A stretch of 53,377 nucleotides of DNA from a virus (Duplodnaviria > Caudoviricetes). Position 1 is the first letter of the stretch; each line of letters begins with the position of its first letter. A model generated the notes under the pieces. It saw only the letters and a list, made by a program, of their open reading frames with translations. It was not told the origin of the DNA and did not search any database. The stretch lies in IMG/VR virus record IMGVR_UViG_3300023296_001269, positions 1 to 53,377 of that record; one strand, given 5' to 3'. Positions 4,471 through 24,736 of this stretch are shown in pieces. A program made the translations under genes and the position numbers.

Positions 4471-5160
4471 TTATTGCTCCGGGTTAATCAGATACGGGTC
4501 CAGGCGTTGATTAGTATCTGGATTATAAAATACCAGATTATCGATCGCCGCGGCGGCTCTAGCTGCGTGGCCGACCCCCATAACATATGCAGGGTCTGCT
4601 GCGTTCATCACCTCTCTTCTTGATAAGCCCGCCATCAGATCAGCGGCCCAGTTCAACTCAGTGGTTTGCCGCGGTGCCCAGTGAAATTCAAAACGGTAAC
4701 CGATCCGGGCGAGCTCTCGCATTGGGGCCCAAATCGCTAATTGTTTTCGGGGTAACCGCCCTACGGGGCTTGTCGCTTTATTCCCCCATGACGCGATGAC
4801 TTGCGAATCCGTTAATACATGCACGCGTAAGAACTGCAGGTTTTCCAGCATTTCTTTTCCGAACATGGCGTCATACCATGTAATCGCCTGCACGTATGGC
4901 ATTGATTCTGCAAAGTTTACAGAACCACAATCCATACCTCCGTAAAAGAACCGCCTGCGTTGATGGCGATTTTCAATGAGTGTGGCTGCCCAGCCGCAGG
5001 CATGATTTCTTCCACTGCCGGAGCCGTCCCCTACCAATAGCAAGTCGTAAGCGGGGTGGCCCATTTTTTCAAGCACCTGGGCGAGCAGTTGTCTTTCTGA
5101 GTCGCGTATTTCAGTCTCCATTGCTGACGTGTAGCCCGTCTCGTTTTCTTTCTGCTGCAT
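4471..5160 (-). CDS. Ribonuclease HI-like protein
   Basis: RNase H catalytic pattern: VGDGSG, SVNFAES, VLTDSQ, FHWAPR...NWAADLMA. Confidence 0.85.
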   Translation of the reverse strand: MQQKENETGYTSAMETEIRDSERQLLAQVLEKMGHPAYDLLLVGDGSGSGRNHACGWAATLIENRHQRRRFFYGGMDCGSVNFAESMPYVQAITWYDAMFGKEMLENLQFLRVHVLTDSQVIASWGNKATSPVGRLPRKQLAIWAPMRELARIGYRFEFHWAPRQTTELNWAADLMAGLSRREVMNAADPAYVMGVGHAARAAAAIDNLVFYNPDTNQRLDPYLINPEQ

Positions 5161-19173: not shown

Positions 19174-20862
19174 CTATTCGTCTAGGTCGACGTTCCGCTT
19201 TTGTCGATTGAGGCGTTTCTGTTTCTTCGTTTGCCCCTCGTTTTGAGCAGCAGATACTGGCTCCCCCTTATTTTCGCAAAACTCTCGGATTTCCTTCATC
19301 CCTGCTGGGTCGTGTACCGTCAGTGGGATTACTGACTTGATCGCGTCACGTAACTGGTCAAACGTAGGTGTACCAGTTACCCCTTCAGTGCCTGCAGTTG
19401 CCTCCAGGGCCCTGCCACGGGCATCCACGATCACTTCTTCCAATTCCGCCCCTACGTATCCGTCTGTGTCTTTAATAAGTTGTTCCCAGTCCGCATCGTC
19501 GAACCCTAGCGACGCAGGATCGACACCGCGACGACGAAGATGGATCTCCATAATTTGCCGTCTTTCTGCATCTGCGGGGATATCCGTAAAGAAGATCTTG
19601 TCAAAACGCCCGGCCCGCAGTAATTCCGGAGGTAGCCCTTCGGTACGGTTTAGAGTCATGATACAGAACGTCTTTGACCGGTTCTCTGCTAACCACGTCA
19701 AGATTGTACCAAACACCCGCTGCGTTACACCAGAATCCCCGCGGCTGCCTACCGCATTTCCCAGTGCCTTGTCGGCTTCGTCAATTACCAACACGCAGCC
19801 GCGCTGTGCGTCGATCTGTCGGAGTACGTCGCGTGTTCGTTTTTCGGATTCCCCTACCAGGCTCCCGAACAGCGAACCGATATCCAGGATGTACCCGGGA
19901 AGGTCCATTGCGTGACAAGTAGCTTTCGCCACCATGGACTTTCCAGTTCCAGGTAATCCCAAAAGTACGCAGCCTTTAGGGTAATCAATTTGCAGCTGGC
20001 GTGCTTCGTCTCCGTACGCCAGCTTCCGGCGGGCAAGCCACGTGGTGTAATTTTCGTAACCGCCAATATCCGAGAAAGAGGCTACAGAGTCTACGGGGAT
20101 ATACGTCAAAATCCCCTCTTTCTTGATGATGCCCGCTTTTTCGTCTTTAATGGTATCCAGCATAGCATCTTTGAACCCATCATGAATAATCAGGCAGCGA
20201 GACAGGCAGTTCTCGGCCTCCCCGTGTGTCAGCCCCAGCATGTTGGTCGCCAGGTTTCTGCGGAGTTCCGGGGACAGTGTTGCTTTCCCCGCGGCCTTGC
20301 CTTTTACAGACGTTTGAACAAAGTCCACTGTCTGTAAAAGTGCCTCTTCATCTGGTAAGACAAAATCGATCACGGTGATCGAAGACTTAATTTTATCTGG
20401 GATATTCAGCTGAGAACTGATGATGATGATCGGTGTATGCCGCTTGCTGTTTACAAGATGGTTCCCTTGTTCCAGCGACTTGATGTGTCGTCGCACTGTG
20501 GGGTCCTTCATATAGTCATCCAGATCCCGGAAGACTAACATCAAGTCACCGCTGATAAGCGACTTGTCGGCAACGGCTCCCAGTGCCTGGATGGGGTTGT
20601 TATACTTGGGCTCGCTCAATTTCTTTTCTAGCGCCGCAGGGGCGGTAAATCCGCAAGCACTGTCCCAGGTAATAACGCCCCAGTCCATCCGCTGCGCTAA
20701 TCTGTGAAGTTCTGCTTCTGCCCGGCTCTCTTCGCTGGTGTGTACGTACAGAATTTGGTAACCAGCTTTTAAGTGCTGGTGTACGTCTTGCGTGAACTCC
20801 GTGTGCTGGATGGTTTCGGTTGCGTCGGTAGTTGCGGCAGGGGTTGTGACTGTATTGCTCAT
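19174..20862 (-). CDS. Ycf46-like AAA+ ATPase ending RQKRNVDLDE
   Basis: Degenerate N-terminal AAA domain (TSEESR, FRDLD), Walker A GLPGTGKS, Walker B VIDEADK, SRH LPPELLRAGRFD. Confidence 0.92.
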   Translation of the reverse strand: MSNTVTTPAATTDATETIQHTEFTQDVHQHLKAGYQILYVHTSEESRAEAELHRLAQRMDWGVITWDSACGFTAPAALEKKLSEPKYNNPIQALGAVADKSLISGDLMLVFRDLDDYMKDPTVRRHIKSLEQGNHLVNSKRHTPIIIISSQLNIPDKIKSSITVIDFVLPDEEALLQTVDFVQTSVKGKAAGKATLSPELRRNLATNMLGLTHGEAENCLSRCLIIHDGFKDAMLDTIKDEKAGIIKKEGILTYIPVDSVASFSDIGGYENYTTWLARRKLAYGDEARQLQIDYPKGCVLLGLPGTGKSMVAKATCHAMDLPGYILDIGSLFGSLVGESEKRTRDVLRQIDAQRGCVLVIDEADKALGNAVGSRGDSGVTQRVFGTILTWLAENRSKTFCIMTLNRTEGLPPELLRAGRFDKIFFTDIPADAERRQIMEIHLRRRGVDPASLGFDDADWEQLIKDTDGYVGAELEEVIVDARGRALEATAGTEGVTGTPTFDQLRDAIKSVIPLTVHDPAGMKEIREFCENKGEPVSAAQNEGQTKKQKRLNRQKRNVDLDE

Positions 20863-21550: not shown

Positions 21551-22000
21551 TTAAGCTCCAGAAGTTTCAAGCCGCGAACAAGCGTGGTGGTTACGCTGGA
21601 ATAAGATAGCCAGGTTGTACGCGAGAGTTTCTAACGGGTAATTTTCCGGTTTCTCTACAGTGTCACCGGAAACTAGGTCTAGCCACCCTGTCACATTATG
21701 AAAGGCGGCGTAACGGCAATCAGCAATAACCAGCATGGGTGGTTGGAGGGTTCGGGCTTGGGCAGCTTTGCCTAGCCCTGTAAGTTGTCCAACTACCAAT
21801 TCGTATAATAAGTTTTTTTGCTCAGGGGCAAGGAACTGCAGTTTATGGATTAACATAAACACCCAGAGACCCAGACAGTGGTCTGCTGTTAATACAGTAT
21901 CCGCGGGCGGCGTCCCTTCCCGCCCAAGTTGCCGAAACGCGGCGCGTAGCTGCAATGCGGATAGTTGTGTTCCGCGTGTAATAGTTTCGACAGTCAACAT
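21551..22000 (-). CDS. Hypothetical protein
   Basis: 149-aa ORF packed in operon. Confidence 0.75.
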   Translation of the reverse strand: MLTVETITRGTQLSALQLRAAFRQLGREGTPPADTVLTADHCLGLWVFMLIHKLQFLAPEQKNLLYELVVGQLTGLGKAAQARTLQPPMLVIADCRYAAFHNVTGWLDLVSGDTVEKPENYPLETLAYNLAILFQRNHHACSRLETSGA

Positions 22001-22003
22001 ATA

Positions 22004-22273
22004 TTACAGGCCGCCTGTCAGATTGTAATCACAGCGATAGGCGGCTACTGCCCCACCACGGCCCATGATTAAGTCTTCTGAATATTTTCCGTCCCCGTCT
22101 ACAGGATAGGCGCTCTCATTACCAGAGATACCAGCACGGGAGATTGTGCCTGCAGCAGTGGTGATTGCCAGGTTTTTAGCAGCGGGGGACATTACGTCTT
22201 CCTGGGACGGGCCTTCAATGGTGACGGTCCCCGTCCGTGAGTTCAGATCTTGTGATACTACATGAAGTGTCAT
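22004..22273 (-). CDS. Hypothetical protein
   Basis: 89-aa ORF, AAGGAG RBS. Confidence 0.75.
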   Translation of the reverse strand: MTLHVVSQDLNSRTGTVTIEGPSQEDVMSPAAKNLAITTAAGTISRAGISGNESAYPVDGDGKYSEDLIMGRGGAVAAYRCDYNLTGGL

Positions 22274-22294
22274 ACTGCGGCTCCTTCTTTTATA

Positions 22295-22815
22295 CTTAAA
22301 AATGGTTATTACTTTCGCAATAATACTCTGCCGTCTTTCTTAACGCAATGCCAGCCCCTGCACCTGTACACGCAGTGATCGCCAATAGCTAAGAAAAATT
22401 GTACAGGGATAGCGGGAAAATAACGCAGCAGACCATTGGAGAGCATGAGGAAAATACTTACAGTAAGTAAAAAGTTCTTACGTAAATAAAGTCCTCACGC
22501 CCACCAATGGTCGCTAAACGGATCCGTCGCCTCAGTCCTCGACCGGGAAGGTCGAGCATTGTCTCACGAGCTCGTTGCGGGTCGCAATAACCCGCCCTGA
22601 GATCACGGTGTACGCGTAACTTTTTGTCACGCGTACCTTCGGTACTGGTTGTTTTTCGATTGCGTTCGGTGTAAACCGAATAGGGGATTGCCGGCGGACC
22701 GGCAGATGTAGGTGATATTCCGCCATCTTTTCTTCCTTCTAGAGGGGCCCATATGATTGGCTCCTTCATCGTTAAACTACGGGTGTGAAGTAACTTATGC
22801 TAAAATAGCTAACAC
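22295..22815 (-). ncRNA. Putative large structured non-coding RNA or long leader
   Basis: At least nine stems in ~520 nt; stem imperfections are G-U pairs on the minus strand; GAAA tetraloop; lies just downstream of the duplicated promoter-like motif. Confidence 0.6.
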
Positions 22816-22818
22816 AGA

Positions 22819-23184
22819 TCACTTTATATGCCGCATTTCTGCGGTTAATTTAGCAGCATATAAGGGCTGCAAGAAATGGCCGATGAGGGATTCGAACCCT
22901 CGATGATCTGGGAGGGGCTGCGTGTACTTAAAGCCCACCCCCCTGGGCCAAGCACTATCCGTAACCTGCCCAGTGCGTGATTCCTCCCGCCTACCGGCCA
23001 GGGCCTCTTCCTCCGCGTCATCACTCGCGGTCTCTTCCGCGATGCTCGCGGCCAGGAAGGCTGCCTCATTGGCTGTCACTTCGGAGGCTTCGCTGGCGAC
23101 CACCGCTGCTGTGCGAGGTGGTCGCCATGCGTAGTAATTGCGCGCCACTAAAAGAATCACGGCGGCGACTGCCCATACAATCAT
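22819..23184 (-). CDS. Possible single-TM Ala/Glu-rich protein reading through the tRNA-like element
   Basis: Open 121 codons with a hydrophobic N-terminus, but no clear RBS and heavy RNA structure. Confidence 0.35.
   Translation of the reverse strand: MIVWAVAAVILLVARNYYAWRPPRTAAVVASEASEVTANEAAFLAASIAEETASDDAEEEALAGRREESRTGQVTDSAWPRGVGFKYTQPLPDHRGFESLIGHFLQPLYAAKLTAEMRHIK
22824..22853 (-). promoter_or_regulatory. Promoter-like motif copy 1, CTAAATTAA-CCGCAG-AAATGCGGCATATAA
   Basis: 27/30 identical to 24399-24428. Confidence 0.65.
22877..22999 (-). ncRNA. Oversized (123-nt) tRNA-like cloverleaf
   Basis: Acceptor GGCCGGT/ATCGGCC+A, canonical T arm GAGGG-TTCGAAT-CCCTC, D-like stem GCG/CGC, extended CTGGG/CCCAG arm and long variable arm; no canonical 7-nt anticodon loop. 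Confidence 0.55.
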
Positions 23185-23204
23185 GTATAAAGGATCTTAC
23201 AAAG

Positions 23205-23237
23205 AGGGTGCGATATTGGTTTACGAAAACGCACCCT
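23205..23237 (-). terminator. Hairpin/terminator after the NLTPH gene
   Basis: agggtgcg/cgcaccct stem followed by CTTTGT. Confidence 0.5.
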
Positions 23238-23244
23238 ATCGTAA

Positions 23245-23601
23245 TTAAATATCATCGGAATTCACTGCGAGACTTTCGCAGCCTACAATTTTTCCTTCTT
23301 CGTCTCTGACAAGATCTGAAGGACAACACAAATCGTGCCGTAATGGCAGTGCTGACATTACCAAGTGTGATACAATCAACATCACACCTTCTTCTTGATC
23401 TGGGAGATTCAAAACATCTCCGAATTCCTTACGTACCAAAGGGACGGGGAAGTTGGCACTCAGCCGCTTGGCTAAGTGTGTCACCGACTCGACACACCTC
23501 GGTAATTTTTGCCTAATCATTGTGATTTCAGATCGCACTTCAACAGTTGAATTTGAAAAAATGATATTCACATTGTGAGGTGTCAGATTTCTTAATCTCA
23601 T
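23245..23601 (-). CDS. NLTPH-motif phage hypothetical protein
   Basis: MRLRNLTPH...LIVSHLV...RHDLCCP...VRDEEGKIVGC; AGGGAG RBS. Confidence 0.8.
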   Translation of the reverse strand: MRLRNLTPHNVNIIFSNSTVEVRSEITMIRQKLPRCVESVTHLAKRLSANFPVPLVRKEFGDVLNLPDQEEGVMLIVSHLVMSALPLRHDLCCPSDLVRDEEGKIVGCESLAVNSDDI

Positions 23602-23640
23602 TTCTTCTCTCCCTTTGTTTGTGGTTAAATAATTCTTTAA

Positions 23641-23937
23641 TTACATTTCACATTCAGGACTGTCAGATGTCAATGTCCAGATAGGACGGTCACCAATGCG
23701 ACCACCATAGAAGGTGGTTTTCCAGACGTCTTTGACAATTCCTTCTGGGAAAACTCTTTCGGCACTTTCTTTTGCCTGAAACATTGCGAGGCTCATAACC
23801 TCTTTCTCTCTCGGATTGATTCTGTAGTTATTCCAACCGGCCATCTTAAATTCCCCTGCCCGGTTATTGTGGAAGCCCATAGCTAAGGGCTTGTCGGAAC
23901 TTTGATCAACGAACATTACAACTTCAAAATGGAACAT
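23641..23937 (-). CDS. Hypothetical protein
   Basis: 98-aa ORF, AAGGT RBS. Confidence 0.7.
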   Translation of the reverse strand: MFHFEVVMFVDQSSDKPLAMGFHNNRAGEFKMAGWNNYRINPREKEVMSLAMFQAKESAERVFPEGIVKDVWKTTFYGGRIGDRPIWTLTSDSPECEM

Positions 23938-24166
23938 GTCAAAACCTTTAAATAATTATTTAGTTAAAAGATTGGCGGTTAAAAGTTCAAATTTTTAATC
24001 GGAACAACTCTGAGAAAAACAGAAATAAGAGTTTTCTTAATAAACATCTAAATGCCCAGCACTTCTTTGATCTCTTGCATCTGTGTAGATTCCACGCCAT
24101 CAATTAGCGTGAATTTGTACGATTTTCATATCTTTAAAACCTTTATTATTTCTGTTTTGTTTGTTG

Positions 24167-24199
24167 AAAAACCCTAGCTAAATAATTCTTTAGCTAAGG
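24167..24199 (-). terminator. Intrinsic terminator built around one palindrome copy
   Basis: ccttagctaaa/tttagctaggg stem plus T5. Confidence 0.65.
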
Positions 24200-24398
24200 T
24201 CTCTGAGAATGGAATTATCTGGTAGATAATTCTTTAAATGCAGTGTGACCATAACTGCTATGGATAAGTCATTAGACGTCTCCCTCAAATAAAAGAAATT
24301 GGTAGCTATCTACCGCGCGATAGATAAAAGAAAAGCCCGTAGCAATATTTCTATTGTTGTGGGCCTGTGTTGTTGTTAGTAGTTAATTAGCATACACC

Positions 24399-24428
24399 TT
24401 ATATGCCGCATTTTTGCCTTTAATTTAG
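24399..24428 (-). promoter_or_regulatory. Promoter-like motif copy 2, CTAAATTAA-AGGCAA-AAATGCGGCATATAA
   Basis: 27/30 identical to 22824-22853; begins at the stop codon ending the structural operon. Confidence 0.65.
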
Positions 24429-24736
24429 ACGGTATAAACGGTCGGTTTCCCTGCCCCGTTTCGGGTAATCACTCGTAGCTGCTTCGCGTTTAACAGGGCC
24501 TTCAGCTGCGACAGCTTGGCCCCTTTTGTATTTTTGATACATTGTTTAGCCTGTGCGAACGCAGCAGTTTTAATCGCGTTCTTTTTCCGGGTACACTTCA
24601 AACAGTTGCGGCCCCCTTTTTGTGTACTGGCTAATTTCTGCTTGAAAGATTGTAAGCAGGGAAGCAACGCTATAAACCGCGGATCTTGTGTCATAGAGCG
24701 AAGCACCTGATCTTCAATCGTTACCAAGTTTGCCAC
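24425..24736 (-). CDS. Basic CxxC protein (paralogue of 25797-26147)
   Basis: TIEDQVLRSM...F..LPCL...RNCLKC. Confidence 0.75.
   Translation of the reverse strand: MANLVTIEDQVLRSMTQDPRFIALLPCLQSFKQKLASTQKGGRNCLKCTRKKNAIKTAAFAQAKQCIKNTKGAKLSQLKALLNAKQLRVITRNGAGKPTVYTV

Follow-up and report, generated by a model that had tools for sequence, protein, structure and literature searches.

The typical substrate of RNase III is a double-stranded stem of more than 20 bp, examples in phages being the sib site downstream of int in lambda, which acts in retroregulation, and the intergenic RNase III sites of T7. In bacteria, small RNAs can be released by processing from structured 3′ untranslated regions, and CsrA/RsmA (Pfam family PF02599) is an RNA-binding regulator. 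Phages also carry large, ornate non-coding RNAs (ncRNAs) such as GOLLD and ROOL; GOLLD often occurs near transfer RNAs (tRNAs) and in prophages (PMC5737381). The stretch considered here, the window, is the whole of the IMG/VR virus record IMGVR_UViG_3300023296_001269 (Duplodnaviria; Caudoviricetes), which is 53,377 bases long with an estimated completeness of 26%. The 521 bases at positions 22295-22815 were read in the initial annotation, on account of their many stems, as a structured RNA of a new large class or as a regulatory leader for an operon that includes an AAA ATPase gene. Based on comparison with related phages, this region is a small gene with putative regulatory flanks and not one large ncRNA. 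It contains, on the minus strand, a gene for a 64-amino-acid (aa) protein that is conserved as a protein, followed by a long hairpin that is conserved as a structure on the sense strand and by a 17-nt word that is conserved as a sequence.

The locus resembles the phage RNase III hairpins in having a long imperfect stem, formed on the sense strand only, after a gene and between phage transcription units. It differs from them in that there is no sequence relation and in that those sites are not known to have an invariant 17-nt word, which here lies about 33 nt downstream. With GOLLD and ROOL it shares the phage context, the strong predicted structure and a tRNA-like sequence nearby; unlike in those RNAs, the central part is mostly a conserved protein gene, and conservation was seen for one simple hairpin only, not for multistem junctions or pseudoknots. 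The structured 3′ segment of a short message, releasable by processing, is also reminiscent of the bacterial small RNAs derived from 3′ untranslated regions, a product of this kind being putative here.

Relatives were gathered through the AAA ATPase gene (19174-20862, minus strand). A search of IMG/VR with this ATPase alone gave no match, and a search with an alignment of ATPases gave 22 loci. The relatives L003 to L008, with ATPase identities of 46-63%, have a common gene order of 430 aa, 116 aa, 348 aa, 103 aa, a variable island, 89 aa, 149 aa, 232 aa and ATPase. The main features of the window at this position are as follows, with the evidence for each in brackets.

22732-22739, minus strand: Shine-Dalgarno-like GAAGGAAG, 5 nt upstream of the ATG of the 64-aa gene (read from the sequence).
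22532-22726, minus strand: gene for a 64-aa protein of an unnamed family, whose members in related giant phages have 54-72 aa (protein relatives, synteny, hidden Markov model and codon score).
22431-22512, minus strand: conserved 82-nt RNA hairpin, long (about 36 bp) and interrupted by small internal loops, 20 nt after the stop codon (folds and relatives).
22382-22398, minus strand: invariant 17-nt word TTTTTCTTAGCTATTGG, about 33 nt after the hairpin (identity in L003, occurrence in many loci).
22004-22273, minus strand: 89-aa gene, the first of the module that ends in the AAA ATPase (tblastn to L003-L008 at 31-66% identity; homologue in L067 by eye).

The initial annotation had described the region as lacking a convincing gene, and had itself named conservation of the open reading frame (ORF) at 22532-22726 as a point that would speak against a large RNA. 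This conservation was found. The nearest relatives are P0127, encoded on a 3.7-kb ENA contig, and P0002, encoded on a 62-kb Logan contig; P0127 (63 aa) aligns with the 64-aa protein from the first to the last residue, with 31 of 64 positions identical (48%), 44 similar (69%), one gap and an expectation value (E) of 2e-20. A three-member profile searched against 1.84 billion proteins gave eight matches at E <= 1e-3, seven of which are proteins of 54-66 aa; the eighth, a 646-aa repetitive protein in which only a 15-residue repeat matched, was set aside. At the syntenic position, L003 has a small ORF of 72 aa and L004 one of 54 aa, both similar to the window ORF and to one another. When a hidden Markov model (HMM) was built from the L003 and L004 proteins only, the window ORF ranked first of 6,503 non-training ORFs (E 0.015), the pool being the stop-to-stop ORFs of the window and the 22 loci. 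Four residues, Y37, V41, G44 and V46, are invariant in the nine-sequence family alignment. By contrast with the protein, the coding DNA has no similarity to the relatives' loci detectable by blastn or nhmmer, which indicates that the constraint is at the protein level. At 0.147 bits per codon, the frame has a codon score matched by essentially no off-frame piece.

No usable assignment of the 64-aa family was obtained from Pfam, PHROGs, PDB sequences or the ESM Atlas. The AlphaFold model of the protein is of low confidence overall (predicted local distance difference test, pLDDT, 67; predicted template modelling score, pTM, 0.28), although residues 31-56 are confidently modelled as a two-stranded beta-hairpin, and a Foldseek search with this low-confidence model gave no meaningful structural neighbour. 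A word-based protein search with the 64-aa ORF found only the ORF itself, a weak null as P0127 was missed by the same method. A metagenome scan with the two closest small proteins produced 143 pattern matches, none of which was confirmed; the nine-sequence alignment was too variable for scanning.

A long hairpin lies directly after the small gene not only in the window but also in L004 (5058-5138) and L003 (about 4811-4897), where the folding z-scores of the spacers are -8.0 and -5.6, respectively. The window hairpin has 36 pairs (32 Watson-Crick and 4 G-U) and the other hairpins have 28-36. In the alignment of the three, 25 pairs are common, 91.9% of the cells are paired and 11 pairs are changed on both sides, while sliding the 3′ partners by 1-3 columns lowers the pairing to 38-53%; for the pair count, none of 500 shuffles reaches any of five measures. 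What is common to the window, L003 and L004 is only this one unbranched helix, and it is kept in place among phages with only 54-63% ATPase identity.

The strand asymmetry noted in the initial annotation holds for the long hairpin, in which the sense (minus) strand forms 4 G-U pairs and folds at -49.6 kcal/mol, compared with 0 such pairs and -36.6 kcal/mol for the antisense strand. In the hairpins of five phages the G-U pairs number 4, 4, 7, 4 and 1 on the sense strand versus 0, 0, 1, 0 and 2 on the antisense strand, and the sense fold is the more stable in four of the five, by 13-20 kcal/mol in the window, L003 and L004. The G-U pairs on the sense strand favour a role in RNA, and the asymmetry supports the earlier reading of a minus-strand transcript. 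With 36 pairs the sense-strand stem exceeds the two helical turns or so that are asked of an RNase III substrate. A scan for intrinsic terminators listed no minus-strand site at the long hairpin or at the smaller hairpin 22306-22323, the latter going unlisted because it has only one G-C pair.

The word has the identical 17 bases in L003 and is one base longer in L004 (TTTTTGTTTAGCTATCAG). When the DNA of the region was compared with the relatives' loci by nhmmer and blastn, only an 18-nt word in L003 was recovered. The exact word occurs in 47 IMG/VR loci and in at least 118 stretches of metagenome contigs, and a degenerate form in at least 113 stretches; the degenerate form is present, in 209 distinct contexts, in 259 of the 288 loci gathered, and the contigs of many word loci measure 140-220 kb. 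In five records chosen by presence of the word there are 10 copies, 1-4 each, including 5 beyond those used for the choice (reversed control, 0). Such a low copy number indicates that the word is not a general promoter. It contains the 6-bp palindrome TAGCTA. A role as the -35 element of a sigma-70-type promoter was considered and rejected, the spacing being inconsistent by eye.

Among the best-folding contexts listed, the word is mostly found directly after a G+C-rich terminator-like hairpin, for which it supplies the T run. In L090 (about 6068, reverse strand) it follows a tRNA gene and a terminator hairpin, so that it marks the ends of different kinds of gene. The placement of the word directly after a terminator-like hairpin is like that in a terminator-promoter cassette, and a promoter-like motif follows within about 10 nt downstream of the word in L133 and L147. 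The arrangement is unlike such a cassette in the window, L003 and L004, where there is no terminator stem at the T run and the long hairpin lies 32-35 nt upstream (our reading of the coordinates). In L003 and L004, by eye, the word is enclosed by stems of other sequence, whose pairing takes in the ribosome-binding site or the start codon of the ORF that follows.

In a sister branch of phages the position of the small gene is taken by csrA. An ORF encoding a 62-aa CsrA is found within 600 nt upstream of the word in L035, L064, L067, L068, L070, L073 and L075, and the same arrangement is present in the metagenome loci L178, L185, L219, L282 and L290 (12 loci in total, in 8 distinct contexts); the matches of the csrA ORFs to PF02599 (E 8e-15 and 5e-14) are above the curated cut-off. 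In L067, csrA is followed by a 66-nt hairpin, a terminator and the word, after which come a ribosome-binding site, a 65-aa gene and ORFs homologous by eye to the 89-aa and 232-aa genes, and in both L067 and L075 a separate terminator stem abuts the word. The 5′ hairpin arms of this branch have a CCAATGGTC-like start in common with L004 and the window; in a seven-sequence alignment across both branches the 3′ arms are too poorly aligned for a pair count. The leader of the downstream gene in the csrA branch has several GGA triplets around the ribosome-binding site, which resemble CsrA target sites. In L067 (9559-9900), L075 (10773-11100) and ten other loci, csrA is followed by an extremely structured spacer with a z-score of about -10.

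The 64-aa family was tried as a form of CsrA and this was rejected, PF02599 being found in none of nine members at E <= 1 and hhalign giving a probability of 0.2% against a phage CsrA profile. The likeness to CsrA/RsmA is thus one of position, of similar protein size and of a long hairpin and word after the gene in the sister phages, and the difference is that the 64-aa family has no detectable similarity to it. As the csrA branch has the same position, hairpin and word, these appear to be older than the gene now sitting there. The presence of csrA at the same position in the sister phages suggests that this spot encodes a post-transcriptional switch for the ATPase module. It is conceivable, though unlikely, that the hairpin and word form a new regulatory RNA element of the clade of ~200-kb phages, always placed after a very small regulator gene (csrA or the 64-aa gene), and act as target or sponge of that protein, gating the ATPase module. 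In that case CsrA would have been displaced here by the 64-aa family, itself a new RNA-binding protein.

The reading preferred here, to which a probability of roughly 0.75 is given, is that of a small minus-strand transcription unit consisting of the promoter-like motif, a leader, the 64-aa gene and a structured spacer with hairpin and word, and followed by the ATPase module. Transcription would start near 22812, behind the motif at 22853-22820, and the 64-aa gene at 22726-22532 would be preceded by some 90 nt of leader containing one hairpin and the ribosome-binding site. A structured spacer of about 260 nt would come next, with the hairpin at 22512-22431 and the word in the loop of an 8-bp stem, before the module of the 89-aa, 149-aa and 232-aa genes and the AAA ATPase. 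Our best guess, by analogy, is that the hairpin directs processing of the small gene's message at its 3′ end, or controls its stability, and would thereby set the amount of transcription or translation that reaches the module downstream. For the word, the most likely function is that of a binding site, as yet putative, for a factor controlling the next gene. The earlier proposal of a regulatory leader for the AAA module fits the 3′ part, where hairpin and word lie between the small gene and the 89-aa/149-aa/232-aa/ATPase module in the window and its relatives.

Several observations weigh against this reading. No RNA sequencing run is listed as containing the stretch, only four salt-lake metagenome DNA runs, and as these carry near-identical sequence, with a single in-region difference (at 22461, in one low-depth contig), they provide no informative variation. 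Among true-frame pieces the 64-aa frame ranks only at the 13th percentile by codon score, with an overlapping 103-aa frame not far behind. The covariation of the hairpin, coming from three sequences and an alignment fitted to the structure, is good but not final evidence, and the covariance model R1 found no further member in the loci of 20 other relatives, 46 other IMG/VR word loci and 79 other metagenome word loci. In the window the word has no gene start directly after it, unlike in L003, L004 and L067. The reading does not account for the stems in the coding part (z-score -3.19). Cleavage of the hairpin by RNase III, proposed by analogy, is at best a tentative suggestion and rather doubtful.

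An alternative that we regard as improbable is that the hairpin and word act in the DNA, as a recombination or nuclease site for the island cassettes or as a replication or packaging signal. The islands of L003, L004, L005 and L008 are hypervariable, being 1.7-2.4 kb long with larger ORFs that are unrelated between phages; a population variant lacks 23172-24265, some ATPase homologues contain HNH or intein domains, and the word, with its TAGCTA palindrome, is present in only 1-4 copies per genome. The one-strand G-U pairs and the much weaker antisense fold in four of five hairpins, however, point to a single-stranded sense molecule, and the usual location of the word, supplying the T run after a G+C-rich terminator hairpin, is a feature of a transcript. 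No recombinase gene was seen adjoining the word, and no integron attC core sites were seen by eye, no dedicated search being made.

The region as a whole is strongly structured, and the stems described in the initial annotation were all reproduced in minimum-energy folds of the minus strand. These stems, a hairpin next to the 89-aa gene and an overlapping ORF are the other features of the region.

22689-22704, minus strand: stem, 6 bp (minimum-energy fold).
22665-22680, minus strand: stem, 6 bp (minimum-energy fold).
22610-22636, minus strand: stem, 11 bp (minimum-energy fold).
22577-22595 and 22538-22556, minus strand: two stems, 7 bp each, within a closing helix (minimum-energy fold).
22363-22407, minus strand: 8-bp stem with the word in its loop (minimum-energy fold).
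22298-22323, minus strand (stem-loop 22306-22323): AU-rich 7-bp hairpin with a GAAA loop, then a U run; weak terminator-like, just before the ribosome-binding site of the 89-aa gene (fold).
22458-22769, minus strand: 103-aa ORF in another frame, overlapping the 64-aa gene and judged spurious (codon score, without relatives, without ribosome-binding site).

The minus strand of the region folds at -184.7 kcal/mol versus -145.8 +/- 6.6 kcal/mol for dinucleotide shuffles (z-score -5.86; 0 of 100 as good), which is 39 kcal/mol more stable than the shuffle mean; the z-score of the plus strand is -5.57. A genome background was obtained from 265 minus-strand segments of the window (521 nt, step 200), with energy regressed on G+C content. 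The residual of the region, -34.2 (standard deviation 11.3), is 3 standard deviations below the mean, and only two of the 265 segments are as low, both overlapping or adjoining the region; the five most over-structured segments all start within 22001-23001. Divided into parts, the minus strand has z-scores of -4.80 for the spacer 22274-22531 (258 nt; 0 of 200 shuffles as good), -3.19 for 22532-22726 and -2.42 for 22727-22875. The single most over-structured 521-nt segment of the record is 22800-23320 (minus strand), at -203.8 kcal/mol, with a z-score of -5.17 for 22800-23250; within it, a perfect 11-bp stem at 23094-23127 falls in sequence that has a strong coding signal.

A dual-function RNA, in which the message would encode the 64-aa protein and its structured body, coding stems included, would also serve as a regulatory RNA such as a decoy for an RNA-binding factor, is quite improbable. 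The coding parts of three family members beat shuffles (z-scores -3.19 in the window and -2.88 and -3.14 in the homologues), and csrA, an RNA-binding regulator, is at the same position in the sister branch. Against the background of their own genomes, however, these values are not rare, being matched in 3 of 63, 1 of 29 and 7 of 28 segments, respectively. The window count refers to segments of 195 nt at z <= -2.9 and places the middle part in the upper tail without making it unique. Moreover, by eye, the stems are not at aligned positions of the protein alignment.

That the whole ~520 nt are one large structured ncRNA like GOLLD or ROOL, with the 64-aa frame incidental, is very improbable and largely refuted. 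In its favour are the z-score of the fold, the position in the most structured locus of the window and the adjoining tRNA-like piece, given that GOLLD often lies near tRNAs and in prophages (PMC5737381). The conserved protein gene, however, takes up 195 of the 521 bases, and its frame is conserved end to end, with full-length amino-acid conservation in several genomes, while the DNA cannot be aligned to that of the relatives. A search of the whole window against Rfam gave no match at the gathering scores, GOLLD and ROOL included, nor was there a covariance-model match to HEARO, OLE or other large ornate ncRNAs. Even at E <= 10, the only Rfam matches in 21900-23400 were to microRNA precursors at chance level (15.8-22.8 bits versus 43-93 required). 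Covarying multistem junctions were not found; the multibranch part lies in the coding region, without an alignable DNA homologue, and the relatives keep the hairpin and word only. Among the stems described earlier, conservation was demonstrated for the long hairpin only, and the structure of the coding part is within the upper 5% of the genome, not beyond it. A strong folding score alone had made a short gene look like a giant RNA; the leads that come out of the locus are an unnamed small-protein family, a sense-strand hairpin kept via compensatory change and a low-copy invariant word in many ~200-kb phage contigs.

The notion that the structure is a functionless by-product of composition or chance can be dismissed as already contradicted: a single long inverted repeat accounts for much of the signal and the coding-part z-scores lie within the background tail, but no shuffle folds as well (0 of 100 for the region, 0 of 200 for the spacer), the region is the top outlier against the genome's own segments, and the hairpin is kept in place at 54-63% ATPase identity with pairs changed on both sides.

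Two further ORFs overlap the 64-aa gene. As a gene, the 103-aa ORF was rejected, having a codon score of 0.046 versus 0.147 for the 64-aa frame over the overlap and no ribosome-binding site. Public annotations hold both calls, and relatives were found only for the 64-aa one; a word-based protein search with the 103-aa ORF returned only itself, which is a weak null for a method that missed P0127. A very basic ORF of 41 codons (22627-22752, minus strand) has a perfect AAGGAG 8 nt before its start. By codon score it is non-coding (-0.29; -0.386 in the comparison with the other two frames), and the protein collection does not contain it; it could still be a short upstream frame affecting translation of the 64-aa gene.

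On the 5′ side of the small gene, two features were identified.

22820-22853, minus strand (second copy 24395-24428): promoter-like bipartite motif, CTAAAT, 17 nt, CATATAAAG (repeat and recurrence in relatives).
22788-22824, minus strand: hairpin of 15 bp where the presumed 5′ untranslated region begins, holding a copy of TTAGCTAT at 22805-22812 (fold of 22727-22875, z-score -2.42).

As reported in the initial annotation, the 34-nt motif is duplicated, the copies at 22820-22853 and 24395-24428 being 88% identical, and the region begins behind the first copy. The motif is spelled CTAAAT-N17-CATAT, and its 19-nt core occurs twice in the window versus 0.06 expected. The form CTAAAT...AAAT..GGCATAT recurs, oriented with the genes, in L038, L147 and twice in L133, as well as in the islands of L006 and L008; sense instances number 8 in 6 phages, and a third copy with other flanks is present in salt-lake contigs. 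Based on this recurrence, the motif appears to be a clade-specific promoter or operator. The second copy begins at the stop codon of the gene 24425-24736, and about 30 nt further on there is a 13-bp terminator-like hairpin with a T run (24364-24335); if the motif at 24395-24428 fires, a very short transcript would result.

The initial annotation had also pointed out that large ornate phage ncRNAs often lie beside tRNA genes. ARAGORN at default settings found no tRNA in the window, and the only tRNA-like piece is that at 22876-23000 (minus strand). An acceptor-type stem of 8 bp is combined there with a canonical T arm (GAGGG TTCGAAT CCCTC) and with a 49-nt two-hairpin insert in place of the anticodon loop; with introns allowed, ARAGORN gives a Gly(CCC)-like fold with the 49-nt insert and the loop CACCCCU. 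A tRNA was defined by detection with ARAGORN default or the Rfam cloverleaf and by a 7-nt anticodon loop with U33 and a purine at 37. The piece was rejected as a tRNA, as it was detected neither by ARAGORN default nor by the Rfam tRNA model (E <= 10). The T arm and the 3′ strand of the acceptor stem are typical of tRNA, a 21-mer from them occurring in 9 GTDB loci, 4 of which are inside called tRNA genes. As a pointer to the host the piece was uninformative, since a 24-mer has no exact GTDB match and the tRNA genes matched by the 21-mer belong to unrelated phyla. The ORF 22819-23184 overlaps the piece with its C-terminal half, where the codon score is 0.014 versus 0.600 in the N-terminal half.

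The relatives of the ATPase are on contigs of 213-230 kb, which indicates that the record is a piece of a giant phage. This phage is uncultured, measures about 200 kb and comes from salt-lake metagenomes. The best match of the ATPase to cultured phages is at 31% identity, consistent with a phage clade without a cultured member, and neither megablast nor blastn of the region against the cultured-phage collection gave a match. Almost all genes of the window are on the minus strand. The island proteins of the relatives, searched against the window, gave no match. Two ATPase homologues, P0033 (845 aa) and P0057 (824 aa), are longer and have an HNH endonuclease or intein-splicing Pfam domain, which indicates mobile insertions in the ATPase gene of some relatives.

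Upstream of the region, a variant contig in one salt-lake run has 23172-24265 (1,092 bases) swapped for 10 other bases, so that the 98-aa and 118-aa ORFs are dispensable in part of the population. A second, small deletion in a population variant is at 24058-24144. The stretch 23625-24240 is an AT-rich spacer (35% G+C at 23801-24321) in which the 19-nt repeat TTAAATAATTCTTTAATTA is present four times, some copies as inverted pairs.

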